A stretch of DNA of 64,000 nt from Alloascoidea hylecoeti. Taxonomy: Eukaryota. Below the pieces are notes generated by a model, which saw only the letters and a program-made list of their open reading frames with translations, was not told where the DNA came from and made no database searches. The number at the start of each line of letters is the position of its first letter. Position 1 is the first letter of the stretch. Below are positions 5,652 to 43,488 of this stretch, piece by piece. The stretch lies in contig BCKZ01000004.1 of assembly GCA_001600815.1 (NCBI GenBank), positions 1 to 64,000 on the forward strand. Reading direction: 5' to 3'. Made by a program: the position numbers and the translations under genes.

Positions 5652-5809
5652 TTTTTCATTTTTCTTTGTTAATTTTTTACAATGAAAATTAGATGAAGAA
5701 AATTAAAGCTAAAAATTCATATGTATGTGCACGTGACTAAGATTCCGTGACTTATCTATAACTAAATAGTAAGAGATTTATATACTTTTTTTCAGTTCAT
5801 TTGATAACA

Positions 5810-6623
5810 ATGTTTATCAATACAGATCTCTATATGAGAGAACTGTTTATAAGAGGCATGTTTTATTGTAGATAATAATAAAATGGGGGGGTTGAATACT
5901 AACATAATAAATGAATAGATGATGATGATGAATGTTATGGATATGGGTGTAATTCGACATGGGATTGGTATGTTTTCAGAGGGGATCCCCAAGTGATATT
6001 TTCTGAAAACTAACAAATTTATTGTATTATTGAACAGGGCACGATGGATTTTATTTGTATTATTTGCAGCATTCTTAATATTAGCGGTTTCAGGATCATG
6101 TATTACAAATAGAAAGCGTCGACAAATGGGTAAAACACCAGTGTATGGTACGGCTTGGATGATGCCTCCAGCTTATACGGCTAACACTGCCCCAATTCCA
6201 GCTAATCAGCAATACGATGTCCCGACCTATTCACAAAATGCAGCACCAACAGATGCCGGATATTATGATGCTAATGGGAGATTTGTAATGACCGGACAAA
6301 TGTATTATAATCCTGTTCCTAATACTAATCCGAATCAATATCAATATCAACCACCACAACGCACCGGAGAAACTTTAGAAGAAGGGACCACGGGAGGAAC
6401 ATTTTATCGAGGACCTGCCCAACCAAATGAAACACATATTAATGGGTCTGGGAATAATAATATTGAATTAGGCAGCTTCCAAGCCCCTCCGGGTCCTCCT
6501 CCGGGTCCTCCTCCTGGCCCACCACCTACTACTTCCACTAGCGCCACCAACAATAATCTAGATAGTGAATTACCCAATTATCAGCCTCCTTCAAATCCAC
6601 TGCCAACCGCAAGGAAGAATTGA
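5810..6623 (+). CDS. RCR-family (Congo red resistance/chitin regulation) single-pass membrane protein with PY motifs; exons 5810-5855, 5919-5967, 6038-6623
   Basis: Spliced N-terminus MFINTDLYMRELFIRDDDDECYGYGCNSTWDWARW, then TM, RKRRQMG-PVYGTAW, PPAY/VPTY and YQPPS. Intron 1 is GCATGT..TACTAAC..TAG; intron 2 is GTATGT..ACTAAC..CAG. Confidence 0.8.
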
Positions 6624-7175: not shown

Positions 7176-8466
7176 ATGTCCACTCACACTTTTACTTGGT
7201 ATGTTTTGTCAATTGTTTTGTATTCTTATCTGCATATGCTAACATGTAGAAATGCATGATAGGCCCTCAGGTCCTGACGATGTATTCGTCACCGGTACTT
7301 TTGACAATTGGTCCAAATCCTTACCTCTAGTTAAACAATCTGATGGTTCTTTTTCTCTAACCACTCCATTACTCTTCAAACCAGATGAAGAGAAAATTTA
7401 TTTTAAATATGTTGTTGATGGAGAATGGAAAACTGGTGATGTTGAAGATAAGGAATTGGATGATTCTGGAATTGAAAATAATATTTTAAAAAAATCAGAT
7501 ATTTCAATTTCATCTCCTGATAAGAAATATATTCCCGAAAGTGGTGGTGTTATATCTGTTGAAGGTTTACAAGCCAATGAAAAGACTTTTAAAACTACTG
7601 TTGAACCAAAAGAAGAACCAAAACAGGTTTCTGTTAAAGGAGAACCTGGTATTGCCATTCCTGAAAACGCACAAGATATCAGTGCTTTTACTGAATTCTC
7701 AACGGTTGATCCTAAAAGTCTAAATGTAGAAGAACCTACAGAAAGCAAGGATGATACGTTCAAAACTACAGTTTTGCCAAAAGAAGAACCTAAACAGGTA
7801 TCAGTGAAGGGAGAACCTGGACTTGTTATTCCTAAGAATGCAGAAGACATCAGTGCTTTTACTGAGTTTTCAACAGTTGATCCTAAGAGTTTAAATGTGG
7901 AAGAACCTACAGCAAGCAATGATGATACTTTTACAACTACAGTCTTACCAAAAGAAGAACCAAAACAAGTTTCTCTTAAAGGAGAACCTGGACTTGTTAT
8001 TCCAGAGAATGCTGCAAACATCAGCGCTTTTACTGAGTTTTCAACGGTTGATCCTAAAAGTCTAAATGTGGAAGAGCCTACAGAAAGCAATGATACATTT
8101 AAAGCTACGGTATTGCCAAAAGAAGAACCAAAGCAAATTTCTGTTCAAGGAGAGCCTGGTATTGTTATTCCAGAAAATTCTGCAAACATTAGCGCTTTCA
8201 CTGAGGTTTCCACTGTTGATCCTAAGAGTCTTAACGTAGAAGAAGCTACTGCAGAAGGTGCAGAAGGTGCAGAAGCCACAACCAGCAAGGACGCAGAGCC
8301 GGTATCGGTCAAGGAAGAGCCTAGTACTGTTGTTCCAGAGAAGGTGCAAGACGCTAGTGAGGCACCAAAGGTTGAACCCAAGAGTTCCAATAGCACACCC
8401 AGCAAGAAGAGCGAAAAGAGGAAATCGTTGGGCGCATTCAGTAAGCTGCGTAAGTGGTTTTCCTAG
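7176..8466 (+). CDS. CRP1/MDG1-like protein with N-terminal AMPK-type glycogen-binding (CBM48-like) domain; exons 7176-7198, 7263-8466
   Basis: Spliced MSTHTFTWPSGPDDVFVTGTFDNWSK...FKYVVDGEW; GTATGT..GCTAAC..TAG intron; basic C-terminal FSKLRKWFS. Confidence 0.85.
7585..8245 (+). repeat. Four tandem coding repeats of 168-171 nt (56-57 aa)
   Basis: Units start at about 7585, 7756, 7927 and 8095: TFKTTVxPKEEPKQVSVKGEPGxxIPENAxxISAFTEFSTVDPKSLNVEE. Confidence 0.95.
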
Positions 8467-16586: not shown

Positions 16587-17351
16587 ATGAGAGGTATGTT
16601 TTGTTATGCTTGAATTTATTATGTTTCTGGCTAACAGTTTCTTCACACAGACTATAAATTGGTAGTACTTGGTGCTGGTGGTGTAGGCAAGTCCTCACTA
16701 ACCGTGCAGTTCGTCCAGGGCGTATACATCGAAGCATATGATCCAACCATCGAAGATTCCTACAGAAAGCCTGTTGAGATAGACGGAAGACTATGTGATT
16801 TGGAAATCCTTGACACCGCAGGGGTTGCACAATTTACAGCTATGAGAGAACTCTACATCAAAAGTGGTAAAGGGTTTCTCCTGGTGTATAGTGTTACTGA
16901 TGAATCTTCTTTACGTGAGCTTAATGAACTACGAAATCAAGTCATTCGAATAAAAGACTCAACAGATGTCCCTATGGTGCTTGTCGGAAATAAATGTGAT
17001 TTGGTTAATGAGCGTGTTTTATCACCTGAAGATGGAATTGAGGTTTCTCAAAATTGGGGGAAGGTGCCTTTTTATGAAACAAGTGCTATGTACAGAACCA
17101 ATGTGGAGGAGGCGTTCATTGATGTTGTCAGGCAAATAATGAGAAGAGACTCGGCTATAGCCTCCCCAGCCGCTGCCATGTCTCCTCCTCAAGGATCGAC
17201 CACAAATGGATCAGCACCTTTAAACGGATCATCTCCTGGAAAAATTACAGGCCAGCCTAATTCACATGTACAACAGAAATCTACTAGTGGAAAGAGAAAA
17301 ACCACTGGACAAAAGAAGAAGAAGAAGAGCAAAGGATGTATTTTGATGTAA
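16587..17351 (+). CDS. RSR1: Ras-family GTPase Rsr1/Bud1; exons 16587-16593, 16651-17351
   Basis: Spliced [50 protein letters not shown], polybasic tail plus CILM CaaX box. Confidence 0.93.
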
Positions 17352-17761: not shown

Positions 17762-18472
17762 CTACGTGTTGGTAATAATATTTCTTTTTCTGGCAGCATC
17801 AATGAACTCCCGTATTTTATCTGCATCTTTTTTACCACTTGTTTCAACGCCTCCAGAAACATCAACACCAATGACCCCTTCCACTTGAACAGCAGATGAT
17901 ACGTTATCTGGGTTCAATCCTCCAGCTAAAATATACTTCCCTTTGGCTGAATCTATACCCAACTTATTCCAATCTAGTAATTTTCCTTCACCACCTACTT
18001 CTCCATCTATTAATGGTAATGCATGTAAACCTGTTTGAACTGATTCTTTAAAATCATCAGCTTTGGGAACAAATCTTGCGATTACAGGAACAGGTATCTG
18101 GGGAATATATTGAGAACGATCCTCTGAACCATGGAGTTGGACATAGTCTAAAGGAATCGATTGACAGTATTCAAGTATAGTAGATAATGGTTGGTTTCTG
18201 AAAACTCCTACAAGAAATGGACCTTCCTGCTTAATTCTATTAATGTGTAGATCAAACCAGTCTTTTTCTTTGGTTTCGGTACTTGTAGAAGCTCTAGAAT
18301 CTCGAGCTTCTCGTACTTTGACAGATATCTGTTTTGCGATGTCTAAATCCACCGTTCTTTGCCTGTTTGGGACCATTATCATCCCCAGTAAATCTGCACC
18401 TGACTCGATTGCTACCTCTGCCGCATCAACAGTAGTTAAGCCACATATTTTCACGATGGGGTCGATTGGCAT
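17762..18472 (-). CDS. TRP1: Phosphoribosylanthranilate isomerase
   Basis: VKICGL, VQLHGSE, ILAGGLNPDNV, GVDVSGGVET. Likely start MPIDPIVK at 18472. Confidence 0.95.
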   Translation of the reverse strand: MPIDPIVKICGLTTVDAAEVAIESGADLLGMIMVPNRQRTVDLDIAKQISVKVREARDSRASTSTETKEKDWFDLHINRIKQEGPFLVGVFRNQPLSTILEYCQSIPLDYVQLHGSEDRSQYIPQIPVPVIARFVPKADDFKESVQTGLHALPLIDGEVGGEGKLLDWNKLGIDSAKGKYILAGGLNPDNVSSAVQVEGVIGVDVSGGVETSGKKDADKIREFIDAARKRNIITNT

Positions 18473-18525
18473 TTTTCTTTCCGTTGAAGTGTAGCAATTT
18501 TTTGGTTTTGGTGTTTGTGGCAAAT

Positions 18526-18533
18526 CCGGGTAA
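18526..18533 (+). promoter_or_regulatory. Reb1-type site in the 123-bp divergent promoter
   Basis: CCGGGTAA centred between the TRP1 and NLR start codons. Confidence 0.45.
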
Positions 18534-18595
18534 ATTACGATAAGGGCTTGCTCTCTTATCCTGTGCATTAATACTTCTTTTATACCACACAAAAA

Positions 18596-21500
18596 ATGTT
18601 CCCCAAGCAAAGCAAAATAAGCCTGGGTTTGCCTGGATTTGGACTAGAGGATGCCCTGGCAAGGGTGGCGAAGATATTGTCAGATATTTATACAGTTCAG
18701 GATGAATCAACTACCCATAACTTTTATAGATTTCTAAATATTAGTGGTCGTTTTGAGGAGTGGATTCAAAGACTGATTATAAACACATCCAGTGACCAAA
18801 ATGATGATGATGATGATGGTGATAATAAGCATGACAATAATGAGAAGTTTGTTATTATTGACGATAACTGGAACTGGTCATTATCAAAAATCCTCAATAA
18901 TGCTCTTAAAATAAATATAATTAATAAAGATTTAAATAGTCTTACGAAAAAATTCCAACAAAATTGGTTTACTTTTACTCATTCTTTACTTGGTCCTGCA
19001 GGCATTAATTCTCAAATATTAATTACAGCTGAAAATAATGATGATGATTTTATTTCTGTAAACTTTAAAGAAATATGTTTAGAAGAATTAGATTCTGATG
19101 AATTAAATTCTTGGTGTTTCCTACAAGTACAAGAATTAAGTCAGTTTAAAAAAGCGTTAGGTAATAAAATATCCTGGGATTATTTAAAAGGAAAAAATGC
19201 ATCTTTAATGCTTGATGAGTTAGAATCTGATTTAGATGGGCTATATGAAGGCACAAAAGGAATGAAGAGTAAGTTATATCATATTTTCTTTCTTTTTAAA
19301 TTTCTTTCTTACTAACCTATTATAGTAATAACACATCCCATATTTGATGAAACCGATTCTATGGTATGGTTCCCTAAACTAGACCCTATATTTTGTGGTC
19401 GTAAAGATGAACTATTCCTAGTAGAGAATAGTTTAAACAATGAAAATGGGAAAAACTCTTGTCTGCTATATGGAATGGGTGGTATAGGTAAATCATCTAT
19501 AGCTTTGGAATATGTTCAACAACATGAATCAGATTATGACTATATCTTTTTCATAGATGCTAATCATCAGGAAGACAGTTGTAAAAATGCACTACAAATG
19601 ATTGTGAATCAATATTGTTTTAATAAACCTTATGGTTACACTGAATTAACACATTATCAAACTGGTATTGAATTTTTATTAAGTGTTAAACTAAATGATT
19701 CATTTAAAATTAAAACAATATCTGCTGAAACTGCATCATTAGCTTTATTATCATGGACTGAAAAACAACATCATATAAAATGTCTTTTCGTTGTTGAAAA
19801 TGTTGATTGGAATCAAGAATCTCATTCTAATTTATGTATTTCATTAACAAAAAATCATGATCAACATGTTTTATTTACCAGTAAAAGTATGAATATTCCT
19901 GAAAATTTAGATACAACAATGATTAAAATTATTGAAGTTGATGAAAAAACAGGTATTAAAATTTTATTTGAAAGATCTGATAGAATAATACCTTTTAAAG
20001 ATGATGATATTGAATTAATATCAGCTAAAAATATAGTAAATCAAGTTAAAGGATGCCCATTAGTATTACAATTAATTGGTATTGAAATTCAAAAGGATGC
20101 AATTGCTTTTAGTGATTATTATAAAAAATTAAAAAAGAATTTTTATAAAGAATTAAATCAATTAAGTTTACATCTAACATTATTAGGTTTCAATCTATCA
20201 ACAATTTCACAAATTTTTAATTATTCATTTGATGATGTTGATGAAATTGATCCAATAACTAAATTATTTTTAAATATTTGTGGATATCTTGATAAAGATA
20301 ATATTCCAATTGATTTATTTGAAAAATCACAAGATATGTTTACATCAAAAGATTTAAAAAAAATTATAACAACATTAAAAAATGATTCAATGATTCAATT
20401 ATCAAAAAATAATGAAGAAAAAAAAGAATTTTCATTTCATCCTTTAATTCATTATAGTATAAAATCATCATTGGAAATTAGTCAAAGTGCTATTACAACA
20501 GTTTTACAATTTTGGATATCTGTATTATCAAATATTAATCATGATAATGATCAAGATTGGGTATTTTGTAAAAAAATTTGTAAACATATAATTGAATCAG
20601 AAACGATTTTATTACCAAGATTATTTCAATCACCAATAAGTTCAAATTTATTAAATTCAATTGCAATATGTTATACAACAAATCATAATTATCATTTAAA
20701 AGCAGAAAAATTATTTAAATCAATTTTAAATCAACAAAAGAAAGAATTAGGAAAAGATTCACTTGAGACAATAACAACATTACATAATATTGGAGTTTTT
20801 TATAAATCACAAGGAAAATTTGGGGAAGCTTTGGATACTTTTGATACAGTTTTAGGATTTCGTAAAAGAAAACTAGGATTAGAAAACCTTGATACATTAT
20901 CAACATTATTTGAAATTGCACAAGTTTTTGATTCACAAGAACAATATGAAAAATCGTTAAATTATTACAGAGATGTATTAACATTACAAGAAAAAGTAGT
21001 TGGTATTGACAATATTGATTGTCAAAATACAATTAGAAAAATTGGAGGTGTATTATTAGGACAAGAAAAATATGATGAAGCTTTAAAAACATTAAATTCT
21101 GTTTATTCATGGCAATTAAATCATTTTGGTAGTGAAGATTTGCATACTATGAAAGTTAAGCATGATATTGCAAGAGTTTTGGATGGTCAAGGAAAACATA
21201 AAGAAGCAATTAGGATTTATAATGAAGTTTTGGAATTTCAAAAAAAGAATCTTTCAATTAATCATCCAGATACAATATCAACAATGCATAACTTAGCTTT
21301 AGCATATGATAATGAAGATGAATATGAACAAGCTTTATCAATATACACAGAAGTTTTAGATTTGGAAGAAACCAATCTTGGATCCGAGAACCCTGATACC
21401 ATGAACACATTGTACAATATTGGTATTTTACATGATAATAATGAAGTATATGATAAAGCATTGGAAGTTTATTCTAATGTATTGGAATTAAGGAAAAAAG

Positions 21501-22828
21501 CCTTGGGGATGCATCATCCAGATACTAGAACTACGATGAATCTTATTGCAAGTGTTCATGATACACTAGAAGAATATGATAAAGCATTCAGTATGTATAG
21601 TGAAGTTTTCAATTGGGAAGAAGCCAATTTCGGCCTACGGGACCCAAATACTTTGGAAACAATGAATCAATTGGCACAGGTTTTGGATCATAAGGGTGAA
21701 GATGACAAAGCATTATTATGGTATGATAAAGTACTTGATTTACAAGAGCGGAATCTAGGCCTAGAACATCCCGAAACTATGAATACTATTTATAACATTG
21801 CATCTATTTTGGATGGTGCTGGTCGATATGCACAAGCGTTGGAAATGTATCTTCGGGTTTTGGTCTGGGAGAGTTTGAAATACGGAGCCAATCATCCCGA
21901 TACTCTGGTCACTTCTTATAACATTGCCCAAGTTTACCAGCATTTGGATCGATTCGACGATGCCATCGATGCATACGAATCCGTTTTAGAATCGCAAATA
22001 ACTCTATATGGGAAAGATGATCTAAGAAGTGTCAAGACGGTCAATCAACTTGCAAAACTTTATGAAAAGAAACAAGATTATAACAAATCAATTGATTTAT
22101 TTCAAACTGTTTTGGATTCACAAGTCCAAAAATTGCCAAGTTGTGACCCTGAAATTTTATCAACTTTGAAGAAATTGGCACATTTATACAATTACCAGAA
22201 TGAAGATAATAAAGCGATTGAATGTTACAGACAAATTTACGAAATGGAAAAAAATAAATTTGGTTTTATTGGTATAAATACATTGACAACATATTTTAGT
22301 ATTGGAAAAATGTTGGATTTGCAGTTAAATCGAACTGAGGCAATTAAAATTGATGAAAAAATTTTAGAAACCTATCAAAAAACAAATAATTTACCAACAG
22401 ATTTTCGAGTTGAAGTAATGGAACACATGGGTCATATGCTTGAAAAGGAAAAAAAGCCAAGACAAGCGCTAAAACAATTTAAACAAGTTTGTACATTATA
22501 CAAAGATAAATTGGATCTTGAATACGATGAAAATTTATCAGCAAAATTAATGAGATCTTATAAACATGTTTTGAAAGTACAAAGAAGAGATTTAGGATTT
22601 CTTGATTTGGAAAGTTTTACAACTATGAATGAGATTGCAGAACTTTATAAACGTCAAGGGAATTTTAGAAAAGCTGTAAAATGGTATAAAGAATTGTACA
22701 ATTTGCAAAAGAAATCATTAGGAATGGAACATCCTTTAACTTTTATAACAGAACAAAGTATTAAGGATAGTTCGAGGAAATGTAGCAGATTTGATAATAT
22801 CAGTACGATTTCAAGTGCGGCTATATGA
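18596..22828 (+). CDS. NLR-like STAND protein: HeLo-like N-terminus + NB-ARC + ~16 TPRs (1391 aa); exons 18596-19268, 19326-22828
   Basis: A GTAAGT..TACTAAC..TAG intron (19269-19325) joins the two ORFs in frame. Motifs: FCGRKDEL, P-loop GMGGIGKS, Walker-B-like FVVENVD, GCPL, FHPLIH, and 42-aa kinesin-light-chain-type TPRs (LG..HPDT..TM.NLA). Confidence 0.88.
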
Positions 22829-23137: not shown

Positions 23138-24007
23138 TTACTCTGTTAATAATGGAGCTTGTTCGGCAGATGAAGAAGAATTGGCTTCGATATCATTTCT
23201 AGTCTTTTTAAGGACATTAAAAGCAGCCGCAAGAGAGAAAAGAGCCAACAACCCAGAAATGACAAAGGCAAAGATCCATTGTAGAGCAATAACTTTATAA
23301 GAGAGTTGCCCCCAACCCAAAGCAAACATAAGTACAGATGTAGAAAATCCAACTGCCCAATCATTGTGGATCACAAGGAATAAACCAGGAACAATAAGGA
23401 AATCCCATATGAAGACATTTGCAGTAATTCTTGCAGCCAAGCCTGTACCGGCGTGAATCATGAGAGCACCATTCCAGAAGATTAAATAAAACAACCAGGA
23501 AAGAGGCATTGCAGCTGTTGGAAGGTGGATAAGGACCCAACGACTCAATGGTTTAATAGAATAAGTTTTTTGAGTCAAGTAAAGAATTATAATGTTGAAG
23601 AAGTTGAATATAACAAACAATTCCGAAATGATGAAATGACCGCGAGCGGAAAAGAAAGACCAAAAAAAGCTAAGGATATTAAACAAAGTGAAGTGCCATC
23701 CAACAGTTGTTTGAACATTGATTGTGGAAGAAGTAACAGACTCGATTGAAAAACTTGGCAAGTAGGAGCTAGTTTCAGGGAGATAAAACTGGAGGATAAA
23801 AGCAATTTGCAGAATGTAGAGGGCAATCCAGTAGATGTAGATGAAGAAGACACTTGGGGAATATGGTGTGTAGCCTATTCTTAAGGGGGTGTCGTCACCA
23901 AATGGCGAATGTGTGCCAATTGTGTAACGGAAGGTCCCATAAATGGACAGGAGAAGAGACAGAACGGCACTGACTTTGCTAGTTAGGACGGAATTCGTAT
24001 GAGCCAT
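23138..24007 (-). CDS. Fungal multi-pass membrane protein (DUF1774-like)
   Basis: About 8 hydrophobic segments, VGWHFTLFN, WLFYLIFWNGA, ALQWIFAF, C-terminal EQAPLL. First ATG at 24007. Confidence 0.7.
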   Translation of the reverse strand: MAHTNSVLTSKVSAVLSLLLSIYGTFRYTIGTHSPFGDDTPLRIGYTPYSPSVFFIYIYWIALYILQIAFILQFYLPETSSYLPSFSIESVTSSTINVQTTVGWHFTLFNILSFFWSFFSARGHFIISELFVIFNFFNIIILYLTQKTYSIKPLSRWVLIHLPTAAMPLSWLFYLIFWNGALMIHAGTGLAARITANVFIWDFLIVPGLFLVIHNDWAVGFSTSVLMFALGWGQLSYKVIALQWIFAFVISGLLALFSLAAAFNVLKKTRNDIEANSSSSAEQAPLLTE

Positions 24008-25010: not shown

Positions 25011-25512
25011 GTTATCAATATTTGGTTTTGTCAAAAAGCGACACACAAATTTTAATTTCAGAGTAAAGTTAGGTATATATGACACATCACGTGATGTGAT
25101 AGATGAATCAGATTGGATTTCCAAAGCAGCTGTTTAATAGCCTGTGAAAGAATACAGAAAAACATTAGACAAACAGTTCCTGTACGAGTGATGGATTAAC
25201 TGACACTTAAATTGGTCGATTTGCTTTAACCCATTGTCACTAAGATATAATGATCTTACAATCGAGTTGATTTTAAAAAAATGTAAATATCATCACTTCT
25301 GAGGAAAAGTTTGGAACTGTTAGTAACTATTGAAATGATGATGATGAACTAAATTTAACGTGTAAGATTAGATTGGCACTACGTAGTACTACATGCCTGT
25401 AGTGCCTATTCATCAAAATTAATTTTCCTTCTAGTAGTGATGAGATGTTTGGAGGTTGGCTCTACTTGAAAAACTCACACAACCATCAGAGGAACTTAAG
25501 GAAACTAAACAA

Positions 25513-27170: not shown

Positions 27171-28265
27171 ATGTCTCGACACCATCATTCTACTTCTCGG
27201 AGAACCAGTAACCTCCAGTGTGTGCTGCTAACCCTGGCTCTTTTGGTCGCACTGATCGCTGCCGACACTACAGGCACCACTGCGACTCAAGCTGCCACCA
27301 CCAAAACAAATGAGGCCACTACCACCCAAGCTACTACTACCCAAGCAGAAGAGACCACTACCGCCAAAACTGCTACAACAACAGCAGATGAGGCCACTAC
27401 CACCCTGCCTGGTCTCACCACGGATGCGACTACCTCGGAGAAAGGAACTACCTCAGAAGACTCAACTTCAACATCAGCTACGTCAACAAGTTCAACGACA
27501 AAAACCACTGCCACTGCGACTGCGACTGCAACTGATAGTGATTTGCCATCTGTTACTTCAGATGCAGAAGCTACGGCTACTGATGAGGACATGCCTAGTT
27601 TGACACAAACGAGTGCCGATGGCTCTAGTTATACGACACCAGCTATAACCATTCCAGCTACAAATGGTAATCCTTATATCCATAGGACATCATCACCTAG
27701 GGGTACGGTGTTTATTGCAGTTGGTTCAGTTATTGGGGGTATTATTTTATCAGTGTTAGCCTGGAACGCGGTTGTAGCGTTTGCCATGAGACGAGAACTT
27801 AAGAACTCAAGAGGAAGTAGTGGAATGTATGATTATAAAGGTCTTAACGATGGTGTTGGTAATGATGATTTCTACGGCCATGAATCAGTCTCCATGGATA
27901 ACCTTACGCCTTCAGGTACAAAACTCTCGATGTATTCTCCTTTGAACGTGCCTGGAAATACTGGTTCCATGTTTATTTCTCCAACGGCAGAAGTCACCAC
28001 CTCGGCTGCAGCTATGACATATGGTGCTGGAAATACTAACAGCATGATGATGAGCGGGAATTCTGCCTCCATGTCGGGGGATATGCGATCCAGTGCTTAT
28101 CTGCCAAGTGGGTATTATCCTTCAGCTGGCCCTGCTCCAAGTAATGCCGACGCTCCTCCACGAAACTCGACCTACGATATGCCCGTTGAGCCACAGCGAG
28201 GACGGGGACGTGGAAGCAATATCCCCCCGAGTATGTATCTGGATGAGATTTTCAAGCAAACTTAA
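27171..28265 (+). CDS. Ser/Thr-rich single-pass membrane protein (Csi2/Prm5-like)
   Basis: Signal-like N-terminus, T/S-rich ectodomain, NPYIH..PRGTVFIAVG + TM, MFISPT and PSMYLDE motifs. Confidence 0.75.
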   Translation: MSRHHHSTSRRTSNLQCVLLTLALLVALIAADTTGTTATQAATTKTNEATTTQATTTQAEETTTAKTATTTADEATTTLPGLTTDATTSEKGTTSEDSTSTSATSTSSTTKTTATATATATDSDLPSVTSDAEATATDEDMPSLTQTSADGSSYTTPAITIPATNGNPYIHRTSSPRGTVFIAVGSVIGGIILSVLAWNAVVAFAMRRELKNSRGSSGMYDYKGLNDGVGNDDFYGHESVSMDNLTPSGTKLSMYSPLNVPGNTGSMFISPTAEVTTSAAAMTYGAGNTNSMMMSGNSASMSGDMRSSAYLPSGYYPSAGPAPSNADAPPRNSTYDMPVEPQRGRGRGSNIPPSMYLDEIFKQT

Positions 28266-39748: not shown

Positions 39749-41147
39749 TTAATCGATATTAATTTCCATATTACTATCCTCATCTTCAATCTTGACAACT
39801 GTATCCTGGTAAAGAATAATATCATTTTCATTTCTAACCTCATTGTCATTTATATTATTATTTGTGTTGTTACTGTTATAATTATTATCATTATTATTTT
39901 GACTTAATTCTTTATAAGTTAAAATATAATTATCTAAAGTATTTTTTAAATCAATTACAGTATCATCTTTAAAATCAATTAAATTACCAGAATCAATTAA
40001 TTCAATTAAATTTGAAATTAAATTAATTTTTCGTTTTAATAATGAAAAAAGATAATCATCTTCATCTTGTAATTGTGTTTCTGATTGTGATTGAGATTGA
40101 TTTATTGATAAAGGAATTAAATTATTATTTGTTAGTGTTGGTGGCGTTGGTGGACCAATTGGATTTAATAATAAATTATTTATAAATGGTTCAGAGGTTG
40201 GGATTGAAGGAGGAGTTGGAGTTGGAGTTGGTACTGGGGTTGAAAATGGTAATATGGGTATATTTGAAGGTGTATTCGCATTATTATTACTGTTATTATT
40301 ATTAGTTGTAGTTGGTATCGTTTGTTTATTTATTGCATTTGATGAATGAAAATTTAAATTTGAAGGAGATGAAAATGAAGGTTGTTGATAATTATTTGAT
40401 GAAGAAGGAGAAGATGATATTGATAAATTTCTTGAATTTCTAATATTTTGTAAAACTGGATTTGGACTTGATAATGATATCGAAAGTCTTTGTTGTGAAT
40501 TTGATATAAAATTTGATGCTGAATTAGAATTAGAAATTGATGTTGAAGTTGAAGTTGATGATGAAGATGCAGGAGATGGAACTAAAGTTAAAGGACTTTG
40601 AACTGTTGTATTTGAATTTGAAATAGATGTTGAATTTTGAGGACTTGGAATTGACCTTGTATTATAAAATTTAGGTAAGATTTGCTGTGGTGAGATAGCA
40701 TCATCATTTGATGATAAAATTGACCTTATATCAGGTAAATGAACATTGTTATAAGATTTATAATTTCCAACAACATGTTGCAAATCCATTGCATTAATGT
40801 CATCATTTTCTTTGTCATTTTCATCTATATTTTTATTTTTATTTAAATTTAAATGTGTTGATGATAATGTTGATGATATTGATAATGATTTTGATTTTTT
40901 TCTTTGTTGTTGTAATTCATCATCATTAATTATATTTATTGTATTTCTTCTTGATTTTGATATTGAAATTGAATTTCTTTTTAAATTTTTTTTTTGTTGT
41001 TTATTAAAATTTAAATTTAAACCAGGTTCAAATTCTTCAGTTGTTGAAGCATCAATCAATTCATTATAATTAAAATAAAATTTTCTTTTTCTTTCTTCTT
41101 CTAATGTTAATAAATCATTAACATTAATATATTCTTTATCATTATTT

Positions 41148-41220
<73 letters not shown>

Positions 41221-42490
41221 TAGTGTTAGTTGAAGATTTTGTAAATTTTTTTAAAATTGTTTCTAATCTTTCAGTATTGTTACATAAATCATTTCTAATT
41301 AATTGATTATTTTCAACATTTTGAATTGGTAAATCAGATATTATACCAGAATAACTCCAAGATTTAATAATTTTTGCTCTTGATAATTCATTCCAAGATT
41401 TTTTAATCCATTCCATTGCTTGATATAAAGAAATATTAAAATCATAGTTACCATTTACTTGTTGATGTTGTTGTTGTGAATTTTTCTTTTCTAAAATTGA
41501 ACCATAATGAGTAATTCTATATAAACATTTAAAATCATCTAATAAACCCCAACTCATTGGTAAAAAGCCAGAAGTTGAACTTGTATAAAACATTGTAATA
41601 TTGGTTAATTTAACATTTATACAACGATGAGAGCTTGTATCATCAACAATTAAAACAATTTTTCTATTTGATATTGACATTTTTTTATCTAAAGTGACTA
41701 ACCAATCATAAAACATCGTTGAAGTTAAACAAGCAGATTTATTATTTTTATAAATTATACCTAATTTATTTGAAATTCTTTGAGAAGATTTATTTTCAAA
41801 ACAAATATAATTTTCATATCTTCCAACTATTAATGGATCGAATTTTTCAGAACCATCAGCATTTGCACCCAATAATATAGTAATTTTTTTATTTTTTAAA
41901 TTTTTATCATTTTCATTATTTTCAAATAAAGGGAAAGAATAAGTTAGTATAACTTCATCAACAGTGAAAATATCCTTAAGTTTAAAATTTAAAGATTTTA
42001 AAGAATTTTTCAATTCATCTCTTTCAGGGAAATCGAATATTTTATCAGGTTTTTTAATTTGTTTATCTAAATCATGAATTTTAAAATCATGACGATTTAA
42101 GAAATTATTACACCATCTATGGGTGAAAATGCCATTGCCGTCTTTATCTAGGTTATTTAACTTTAACCAAATTGCATTTGCAGCGTTTATGATAATTTGG
42201 GTTGAAATGGGGACACTATCCCAAGCAGATTGAGACATCCATTCCAATAATATTTTGTGGAGCAAAGGATTTTTAACGGGTCTTCTTCTTTTTGAAATTA
42301 ACTCGTGAGACTTTGCCGTTATTAGATCATCTTTCGAGGAGAGAATTCTTGAGATTGTAGTTTGGGAAGGAGGGTTTGGCATTTGGTATTTCTCCTTTAC
42401 CCAGTTGGCCAGATCCAACTGGGTCATTTTGGGGTTAGCCTCAGCTTTAAGACAGATTTCTATTTTCTCTTTTATGGTGTAGGAGGACAT
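39749..42490 (-). CDS. PDC2: Pdc2/Rag3-like transcription factor (CENP-B HTH + DDE_1-derived domain)
   Basis: YTIKEKIEICLKAEANPKMTQLDLANW..PSQTTISRIL, IFTVDE, NADGSEKFDPLIVG, IVLIVDDTSSH. Likely start MSSY at 42490. Confidence 0.85.
41151..41216. repeat. (TTA)22 microsatellite encoding poly-Asn in PDC2
   Basis: Perfect trinucleotide run. Confidence 0.95.
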
Positions 42491-42652
42491 AAAATGAGAA
42501 AAGATGTGATGTGGAGAAGAACAGAAGTGGAGAGAGAGTAAAAACAGAAGGAGTTTGGAGGTACCGATATAATAATGATGGTAAATCTGTGTGGGTGTGA
42601 CCCTAACCCACAAGACAACTGTTGAGCTGTAGGGCCCCGGAGAACCCTCGTT

Positions 42653-42684
42653 CCCCCCGCGGGACCCCCCGCGGGACCCCCCGC
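42653..42684. repeat. GC-rich 12-nt tandem repeat upstream of PDC2
   Basis: (CCCCCCGCGGGA)2 CCCCCCGC. Confidence 0.85.
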
Positions 42685-43488
42685 AGCCCTTGAAAGGGTC
42701 CCCGTGGGAAATGTGGGTGCGTGGATTTGTCAGCATTTCCCTTACATTTAAGCAGAAACTCACGTGTTTTATTCAAATCCACCACATTATTCTGTTGCGG
42801 CTATAGAAGGAGGCGGCGTTCAGCCGTTCTTTGAAAATCTTATTACAAATTAGACTGAGAAGTTAAAACTGAAAACTTCTGTGGTTTGGAAGTACAACGG
42901 AATGCTCTCAATTCAGATGTAAGATGCTTTTTTTCCGTCCTAATCTAGGAAACTGTCACCAAACGGTGCTGGGGTATGAAATCTCCGGCGAAAATACAGC
43001 AGGTCAGAAATTAGTGAAGCGGGGTGGTAGTCAGTGTTCGTATGTCTAGTCGATCATTGGGCCAAGTATTTAGTGTAAAATGTGACCAATGATTATCCTT
43101 CATCATGACCGAACATTATTCCCTTGGACTGTATATAACGGCCTATTATTTAGTATCTAAAATGGTCGGTCATTTAGTGGAACAAAACTTATGCGAGTTT
43201 AAAAATAGCGCCAGTTGCATATGCATGTGAGTGAAAAGGATTTTTACAATAACTTCTGCAATCTAACAATATTGATATAAAACCGAAATGTCTCAAACCT
43301 TCAAAATGTTAGAATATTACTGTCTAAGTCAATATTAACTAATCCATGTTTATTTTCTGATTAGAATATTGCGTTTCAATGTTAATTGTATACAATTTTT
43401 ATATAAATTCCTAAGTTTGCCCTACTTCTAGATCAATTGAACTTGAAATCAAGACCTTGTTGCTCCAGATCAATATACATATTCAATA

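Follow-up and report, generated by a model that had tools for sequence, protein, structure and literature searches.

A probable two-exon gene of NLR layout with an orphan N-terminal domain in a budding-yeast-type genome

INTRODUCTION

The closest described systems to the gene reported here are the NB-ARC-TPR proteins among the fungal NOD-like receptors (NLRs), which are known from Pezizomycotina and Agaricomycetes and are represented by the Podospora anserina loci in Dyrka et al. 2014 and by one protein each from Aspergillus (P0018) and Amanita (P0015). They consist of an N-terminal domain, an NB-ARC nucleotide-binding oligomerization domain (NOD) and an array of 42-residue tetratricopeptide repeats (TPRs) of the TPR_10/12 kind, and they occur in tens per genome. 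Here we analyze the first 64,000 nucleotides (nt) of contig BCKZ01000004.1 from Alloascoidea hylecoeti (assembly GCA_001600815.1, forward strand), hereafter called the window. Positions 18596–22828 of the window probably form one two-exon gene for a 1391-amino-acid (aa) STAND (signal transduction ATPases with numerous domains) protein with the same tripartite layout, carried by an AT-rich and isolated lineage of Saccharomycotina.

Surveys and reviews of fungal immunity place NLRs in filamentous fungi only and describe yeasts as lacking them (PMC4986451, PMC5658179, PMC9815663, PMC10197012). Dyrka et al. 2014 counted 0 NLRs in 38 Saccharomycotina genomes (PMC4986451), the genomes that encode no NLR were described as "largely Saccharomycotina" (PMC5658179), and an update of 882 strains calls NLRs "absent in yeast genomes" (PMC10197012). 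The original prediction for this locus, made from the sequence alone, had likewise regarded NLRs as largely absent from yeasts, in agreement with these three sources. One of the four articles uses the absence to tie NLR-controlled cell death to multicellular life. A full-text search found no literature report of an NLR in Saccharomycotina, although supplements may list rare yeast matches, and the yeast terms looked for were not found in the available part of a 2025 review of fungal cell death (PMC12881547). According to the 2014 survey, NB-ARC pairs preferentially with TPR in fungi, every fungal NLR whose function is known serves non-self recognition or cell death, and many fungal NLR N-termini are unannotated (PMC4986451).

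Two wider groups of proteins share parts of this layout. Bacterial proteins with an XRE-type helix-turn-helix (HTH) domain, an NB-ARC module and TPRs, together with the family NF040586, have the same NOD followed by TPRs of the kinesin light chain (KLC) type, and they give the best sequence matches to the NOD described here; the yeast gene differs from them in having a spliceosomal intron, no HTH and another N-terminus. Apaf-1, CED-4 and the plant coiled-coil NLR (CNL) resistosome proteins have the same NB-ARC fold, with P-loop and GxP regions that can be aligned, but their sensors are WD40 or leucine-rich repeats where the yeast protein has a TPR array, and their identity to it is only 12–16%. 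By no search was its N-terminal domain a CARD, CC or TIR domain. Compared with the NB-ARC-TPR NLRs of other fungi, the yeast gene is single copy as far as seen, its NOD is only about 20% identical to theirs, and its N-terminal domain falls in none of the described classes.

RESULTS AND DISCUSSION

A predicted yeast-type intron joins two open reading frames

Two open reading frames (ORFs) lie on the + strand of the locus, at 18596..19315 (239 aa) and 19361..22828 (1155 aa). A 57-nt sequence at 19269..19325 (+) has a GTAAGT donor (19269–19274), a TACTAAC branch point (19310–19316) and a TAG acceptor (19323–19325), whose AG is the first one past the branch point. Its removal joins both ORFs in frame and gives 1391 codons and one terminal stop, made up of 673 nt from exon 1 and 3503 nt from exon 2 (4176 nt). 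Exon 1 (18596..19268, +) opens with ATG, comprises 224 codons and 1 nt and encodes the orphan N-terminal domain, while exon 2 (19326..22828, +) contributes the 2 nt finishing codon 225, a further 1166 codons and the stop, and encodes the NB-ARC module and the TPR array. In the unspliced form the frame stops at 19313–19315, which yields the 239-aa product. The pattern GTAAGT-N15-45-TACTAAC matched once in the 64-kb window, at the intron site, compared with 0.02 matches expected from shuffles, and was matched in 2 of 100 shuffles of the window; TACTAAC alone was not enriched in the window (10 seen, 6.9 expected). Thus the fusion of the 239-aa and 1155-aa ORFs by a 57-nt intron into a 1391-aa protein, as originally proposed, was confirmed by the sequence, the frame and the rarity of the pattern. 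The intron has the features of the Saccharomycotina type, namely a GTAAGT or GTATGT donor, a (T)ACTAAC branch point, the first AG as acceptor and a restored frame, and the other candidate introns of like style in the window combine GTATGT, GTAAGT or GTGAGT with ACTAAC.

Both exons have the character of coding sequence. The 224 open codons of exon 1 have a chance probability of about 1e-8 at the base composition of the window, and the GC content at codon positions 1/2/3 was 0.41/0.28/0.24 in exon 1 and 0.40/0.27/0.16 in exon 2, a coding-type gradient that falls from position 1 to position 3, as in the neighboring genes. CTG accounts for 5 of the 166 Leu codons, and the two in alignable positions both stand in hydrophobic columns. 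No tRNA genes were found in the window. The standard genetic code was kept for all translations, as the sequence gave us no reason to depart from it. Judged by sequence logic, the gene structure can be regarded as established, and the same holds for the identity of the NB-ARC and TPR parts and for the yeast setting.

Exon 2 encodes a divergent NB-ARC module and 16 TPR units

In the Pfam search, NB-ARC (PF00931) matched residues 32–275 of the exon-2 protein (19421..20152, +) with an E-value of 1.1e-8 and 35.0 bits, against a curated cut-off of 23.5, and the whole NOD module extends to about 20640. Motifs were placed on alignments of relatives, one of the NOD with 18 database matches and one of 15 sequences (14 of those 18 and the yeast protein) for invariant columns. 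The P-loop or Walker A motif GMGGIGKS (aa 274–281; 19472..19495, +) fits the pattern GxxxxGK[ST], and its G, G, G, I, G and K columns were invariant in 15 of 15 sequences. The Walker B region reads FVVENVD (aa 379–385; 19787..19807, +). The GxP (GLPL) motif is GCPL (aa 467–470), with invariant Pro and Leu, and is covered by the Apaf-1 alignment. The MHD-type motif FHPLIHY (aa 595–601; 20435..20455, +), in which His596 is invariant across the alignment, is of the hHPLhH type that the fungal NB-ARC-TPR NLRs also have.

Among solved structures, the best chain by sequence for the NOD was Apaf-1 (E 0.0017). An alignment-based AlphaFold2 model of the 460-aa NOD region reached a predicted local distance difference test score (pLDDT) of 73.3, and a Foldseek search with this model returned Apaf-1 at the top (E 3e-12), followed by tomato NRC proteins, ZAR1, Sr35, CED-4, MalT and an archaeal STAND-TPR protein. 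The matches to Apaf-1, the plant NLRs and CED-4 all had a probability of 1.00, and their template modeling (TM) scores were modest at 0.39–0.44, as is expected for multi-domain chains. NF040586, a bacterial NB-ARC and TPR family of NCBIfam named FxSxx-COOH system TPR protein, matched the NOD alone with an E-value of 2.5e-23 and the whole exon-2 protein with 316 bits against a cut-off of 300, which is like the 331 and 369 bits of the Aspergillus and Amanita NB-ARC-TPR proteins, respectively. Going by these matches and the modeled fold, exon 2 is a standard NB-ARC-TPR module of the STAND class and a very divergent one.

The TPR array occupies aa 664–1360 (20642..22732, +) and comprises 16 units of 42 residues of the TPR_10/TPR_12 kind. 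TPR_12 matched in 12 stretches (Pfam, E 7e-96), TPR_10 matched as well, and autocorrelation peaks at lags of 42, 84 and 126 indicated a sharp 42-residue period in the C-terminal half of the protein. Fifteen units are in register at aa 664–1293, and one further unit follows after a shift, at about aa 1318–1360. The mean pairwise identity of the 15 in-register units was 24% at the amino acid level (maximum 48%) and 47% at the nucleotide level, and no 126-nt tandem DNA repeat was found within the array. On this sequence evidence the units are old and diverged. The original prediction had described a P-loop NB-ARC, about 16 TPRs and, with the N-terminal domain, an NLR architecture in one intron-joined gene; the Pfam score, the motifs, the Apaf-1-like modeled fold and the count of 15 units in register and one shifted bear this description out.

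The N-terminal domain is an orphan

The product of exon 1 is 224 aa long and contains an acidic low-complexity stretch at about aa 63–90. The whole of exon 1 matched 0 Pfam families at E<=1 and none at E<=10, its first 65 aa matched none at E<=10, and neither PADLOC nor NCBIfam gave a family match. The last 135 aa alone (E<=10) gave sub-threshold matches to DUF4435 and RUS6_N, which are unrelated families and were rejected. When exon 1 was compared with the sequences of solved structures, 0 chains matched at E<=10. An exhaustive phmmer search against 1.84 billion protein representatives returned three proteins, the exon 1 ORF itself, P0140 and P0141; the latter two are long bindin-like coiled-coil repeat proteins (with bindin and coiled-coil Pfam matches) that gave 13 and 9 matches at roughly 21% identity, and we discarded them as chance amplified by repeats. 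Two look-ups in a protein atlas gave a recognition of 1378, well under the 2300 usual for known families. Their top rows, unnamed bacterial or viral clusters with Bac_thur_toxin or Evf on half of the members, agreed in 155–158 of 256 features where 170 are usual for a true family, and were set aside as chance.

A single-sequence AlphaFold2 model of exon 1 (pLDDT 34.6, predicted TM score 0.25) was too poor for fold comparison. At this low confidence it is mostly helical (residues 17–31, 37–48, 53–62, 91–103, 113–135, 181–188 and 203–221), which we take as a hint only. Over the first 260 aa, Kyte-Doolittle means of 19 residues peaked at 0.93 (aa 10–28), with several charged residues within that segment, and a Gly- and Leu-rich stretch lies at aa 8–17. 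In Pfam, NCBIfam and PADLOC, none of the described fungal NLR effector classes (HeLo, HeLo-like, Goodbye, sesB, PNP_UDP, HET, patatin, prion motif and others) reached its curated cut-off. Since many fungal NLR N-termini are unannotated, failing the described classes does not exclude membership among fungal NLRs. By the sequence searches, the N-terminal domain of about 250 aa is an orphan.

Relatives and origin of the NOD

A search for relatives of the NOD, which pre-selects candidates by shared words, gave bacterial-type XRE-HTH/NB-ARC/TPR proteins as its 10 best matches (E 2e-10 to 6e-5), the top one with an E-value of 1.9e-10 and 22% identity over 96% of the region, while the two named fungal matches had E-values of 6e-4 and 9e-4. 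In the JGI metagenomes, 566 pattern matches to the NOD were obtained and 0 were confirmed. A quick tree of 19 NOD regions was computed by maximum likelihood; in it, the yeast sequence was odd in composition, joined only other long branches and stood in no supported set, with no supported grouping with the bacterial proteins. No origin can be read from the tree, and the gene may be an ancient acquisition or a vertically retained gene that diverged fast.

The gene lies among yeast genes

On its left side the gene is flanked by TRP1 (17762..18568, −), which encodes a monofunctional phosphoribosylanthranilate (PRA) isomerase. Relatives cover about 84% of this ORF, and its real start is probably an internal Met near 18472. 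A gene for a DUF1774 membrane protein (23138..24007, −) lies on the right side and is convergent with the NLR gene. With self left aside, the best TRP1 matches reach 54% identity only, and all 38 named among the 120 matches listed belong to Saccharomycotina genera. The same is true of all 33 named among the 120 matches listed for the DUF1774 gene, the best named one being Ascoidea rubescens at 49% identity. The other genes of the window are ordinary for a yeast, including LAA1, an AATase-family acyltransferase, a Tc5/pogo-derived protein, a bHLH/DUF2014 protein and a Ras-type GTPase, and the long genes, LAA1 (2117 aa) among them, run without interruption. The genome is of budding-yeast type, and its lineage has no close named relative in the protein collection. 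The budding-yeast setting among ordinary yeast genes that had been claimed for the locus was thus upheld by the relatives of TRP1 and of the DUF1774 gene together with the intron style and the codon composition.

TRP1 and the NLR gene are divergent. Their longest ORFs are 27 nt apart, and about 123 nt (18473–18595) separate them when TRP1 is counted from the internal Met, leaving a very short shared promoter region.

Proposed mechanism and output

By analogy with Apaf-1, CED-4, plant NLRs and other STAND proteins, the TPR array would hold the protein in an ADP-bound closed off state and sense a ligand. Ligand binding would then permit nucleotide exchange at the P-loop and oligomerization, and oligomerization would cluster the N-terminal domains, whose activity would be the output. 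The mechanism expected for the yeast protein is thus the same as in Apaf-1, CED-4 and the plant CNLs, in which nucleotide-dependent oligomerization activates N-terminal domains by proximity. Because the fungal NLRs with known function do so, an output in defense, non-self recognition or cell death may be the likeliest single guess, which we hold at somewhat less than even chances. The undescribed yeast system of non-self recognition or programmed death that the original prediction suggested would have such an output. That the gene is a working NLR-type receptor of a budding-yeast lineage and that its orphan N-terminal domain is a new kind of defense or death effector is a narrower proposal, and we regard it as doubtful. 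Under this proposal, the stop codon within the in-frame 57-nt intron would let splicing determine whether the complete receptor or only its N-terminal domain, as a free 239-aa protein, is made.

Weighing the readings

Several observations weigh against the reading of 18596–22828 as one gene for a tripartite STAND protein in a Saccharomycotina genome. Splicing and transcription are predicted only, with no RNA run among the listed sequencing runs that contain the stretch; four DNA runs from three studies contain at least 0.99 of the stretch's sampled words, but all four may themselves be the source of the window and so lend no independent support. The public protein collection lists the 239-aa read-through ORF as an entry of its own, drawn from NCBI and Logan and from one 19402-nt contig, and does not contain the exact 1155-aa ORF; therefore, automatic gene calls do not join the two exons. 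As for the setting, the TRP1 search took proteins of 146–468 aa, leaving long fused forms of other fungi outside its range, and the genera named among the TRP1 and DUF1774 matches are, Ascoidea aside, ones that we assume to be Saccharomycotina. In the NOD, Walker B has Glu382 where at least 90% of the aligned relatives have Asp, so that the yeast protein reads Glu-Asn where the bacterial proteins read Asp-Asn; Lys411 (FTSKS) stands at the sensor-1 column, which is Arg in at least 90% of the relatives; and a poorly modeled, yeast-specific insert of about 35 aa separates Walker A from Walker B. The Asp-to-Glu and Arg-to-Lys changes are conservative by sequence, and hydrolysis might be altered. 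The TPR units do not have the high internal conservation of allorecognition NLRs, a subset to which conserved, recombining repeats are restricted. No NOD relative of more than 24% identity was found, and neither a paralogue nor an orthologue in another yeast was seen among the NOD matches in the protein collection or the JGI metagenomes. The end branch of the yeast NOD in the tree measures 5.39 changes per column, which could reflect relaxed constraint or changed function.

Some of these points would also be expected if the locus held two separate genes, or an upstream ORF and a real gene, with the intron-like sequence left unspliced and the NB-ARC-TPR protein starting at Met 19361 without an N-terminal effector domain. 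The stand-alone 239-aa entry, a Met 11 codons past the acceptor site, the lack of spliced reads at hand across the junction and the short N-termini of some bacterial and fungal NB-ARC-TPR proteins (the P-loop region of Amanita P0015 is reached from about aa 55) all favor this arrangement. However, the single donor and branch-point match of the 64 kb falls exactly between the two ORFs, removal of the intron restores the frame, and only 45 nt lie between the stop of the first ORF and the Met of the second, which leaves no room for a promoter; moreover, the gene calls of the collection seem to be intron-blind, and the 239-aa entry is a read-through into the intron. We consider the two-gene arrangement quite unlikely. 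That the gene was recently acquired by horizontal transfer, whether from a bacterium or from a filamentous fungus, or is a contaminant of the assembly and no old yeast resident, appears more improbable still. This reading draws on the bacterial-type proteins that head the NOD matches, with the two named fungal ones weaker, and on the lack of a homologue in any other yeast in the protein-collection and JGI searches. Against it stand the yeast-type spliceosomal intron, the codon-position GC like that of the neighbors and the yeast genes on either side in one window. The best identity to anything is 24%, on the long branch described above and with no supported placement, so any transfer would have to lie far back in time, from a donor that cannot be named; among the relatives, the Aspergillus protein has the nearest MHD-type motif, and the NF040586 score resembles those of the fungal proteins.

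With one two-exon gene as the preferred reading, the nature of its N-terminal domain and of its output can be weighed. The original prediction had taken exon 1 for a HeLo domain, that is, a HeLo or HeLo-like helical bundle of the HET-S or MLKL type that permeabilizes membranes, which would make the protein an all-in-one executioner NLR. The domain has the right size (about 225–250 aa) and position, the low-confidence model is mostly helical, and the Gly- and Leu-rich stretch is present at aa 8–17. The Pfam search, which presumably covered HeLo, HeLo-like, SesA and Goodbye models, returned no family for exon 1 apart from the sub-threshold matches of its last 135 aa, and the solved-structure sequences and the phmmer search, with its self match and two repeat artefacts, likewise gave no HeLo match, so the claim found no support. 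The HeLo family appeared in neither atlas look-up, where recognition was low. The peptide strings on which the claim had relied are present in exon 1, but their HeLo likeness was to consensus strings, which is no test, and fails in profile matching. What the yeast domain has in common with HET-S and HeLo, HeLo-like and MLKL four-helix bundles is only the N-terminal place in an NLR, the size and probably the helical character; it differs from HET-S/HeLo and HeLo-like domains in matching no profile at any of the thresholds applied and, by hydropathy, appears to lack a strongly hydrophobic helix at its N-terminus. HeLo-type domains are common as fungal NLR N-termini (PMC4986451); nevertheless, HeLo makes up 1–4% of the annotated N-termini, and HeLo-like is paired "almost invariably" with NACHT and not with NB-ARC (Dyrka et al. 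2014, PMC4986451), which lowers the prior for HeLo in an NB-ARC protein. A HeLo identity is therefore unlikely in our judgment. A working STAND switch with a non-immune, regulatory or scaffolding job, in which the N-terminal domain signals to an ordinary cellular pathway, is possible, although we would not call it likely. Such switches have precedents in bacterial NB-ARC/TPR regulators like MalT and AfsR and in single-copy proteins of the Apaf-1 type, and MalT was among the fold matches. As far as seen, the gene has undergone no family expansion; its neighbors are housekeeping genes, its TPR units are not the near-identical, recombining repeats of allorecognition NLRs, and its best NOD relatives by sequence carry an XRE-type DNA-binding domain. 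In sequence terms, a conserved sensor would account better than a fast-evolving allorecognition gene for repeats that have diverged and for what seems to be a single copy. On the other side, no DNA-binding or other regulatory domain was detectable in the N-terminus with Pfam or NCBIfam, and all fungal NLRs of known function act in non-self recognition or cell death (PMC4986451).

Implications of a yeast NB-ARC-TPR gene

The protein is of a known kind, the fungal and bacterial NB-ARC-TPR STAND proteins; what is unexpected is its lineage, and its N-terminal domain is an orphan. As far as gene content goes, the absence of NLRs from yeasts has a counter-example in this intact NB-ARC-TPR gene, which has an intron of yeast type and lies between TRP1 and another yeast gene. 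As its N-terminal exon is entered in the collection as a protein of its own (239 aa), gene calling that is ORF-based or prokaryote-style can hide such genes. The locus offers a one-gene system for asking what role an NLR has in a yeast-type fungus, and its N-terminal domain, which has no detectable relatives, adds to the candidate NLR output domains. If the gene were a working receptor with a new effector, the rule that NLR immunity is lacking in yeasts would fall, and the gene would serve as a single-gene model of such immunity. Some Saccharomycotina grow as hyphae, and if the host lineage does so, the finding fits the multicellularity argument.

Other features of the window

A Ras-family small GTPase gene of the RSR1/Rap type (16594–17351, +) encodes a protein whose P-loop reads GAGGVGKS and which ends in the CaaX-like sequence CILM. 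A candidate 5ʹ intron of 116 nt at 16594–16709 (GTATGT, CACTAAC, CAG) makes this gene a second example of the yeast intron style in the window. Additional candidate introns, likewise with ACTAAC as branch point, adjoin short exons at 5723–6037 (+) and 25299–25478 (−).

An intact 994-aa ORF at 39749–42736 (−) is Tc5/pogo-like, with a Tc5-type HTH and a DDE_1 transposase domain, and contains a long ATT/AAT microsatellite at about 41149–41220. No terminal inverted repeats were found around it; an active transposon was rejected on that account, and the ORF looks more like a domesticated pogo-type gene. In the translation of 7252–8466 (+), an AMPK-type glycogen-binding module precedes about four long tandem copies of a Lys-, Glu- and Pro-rich motif. 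A 364-aa ORF at 27171–28265 (+), rich in Thr, Ser and Ala and with no Pfam family, has one hydrophobic segment and the look of a mucin-type surface or membrane protein.

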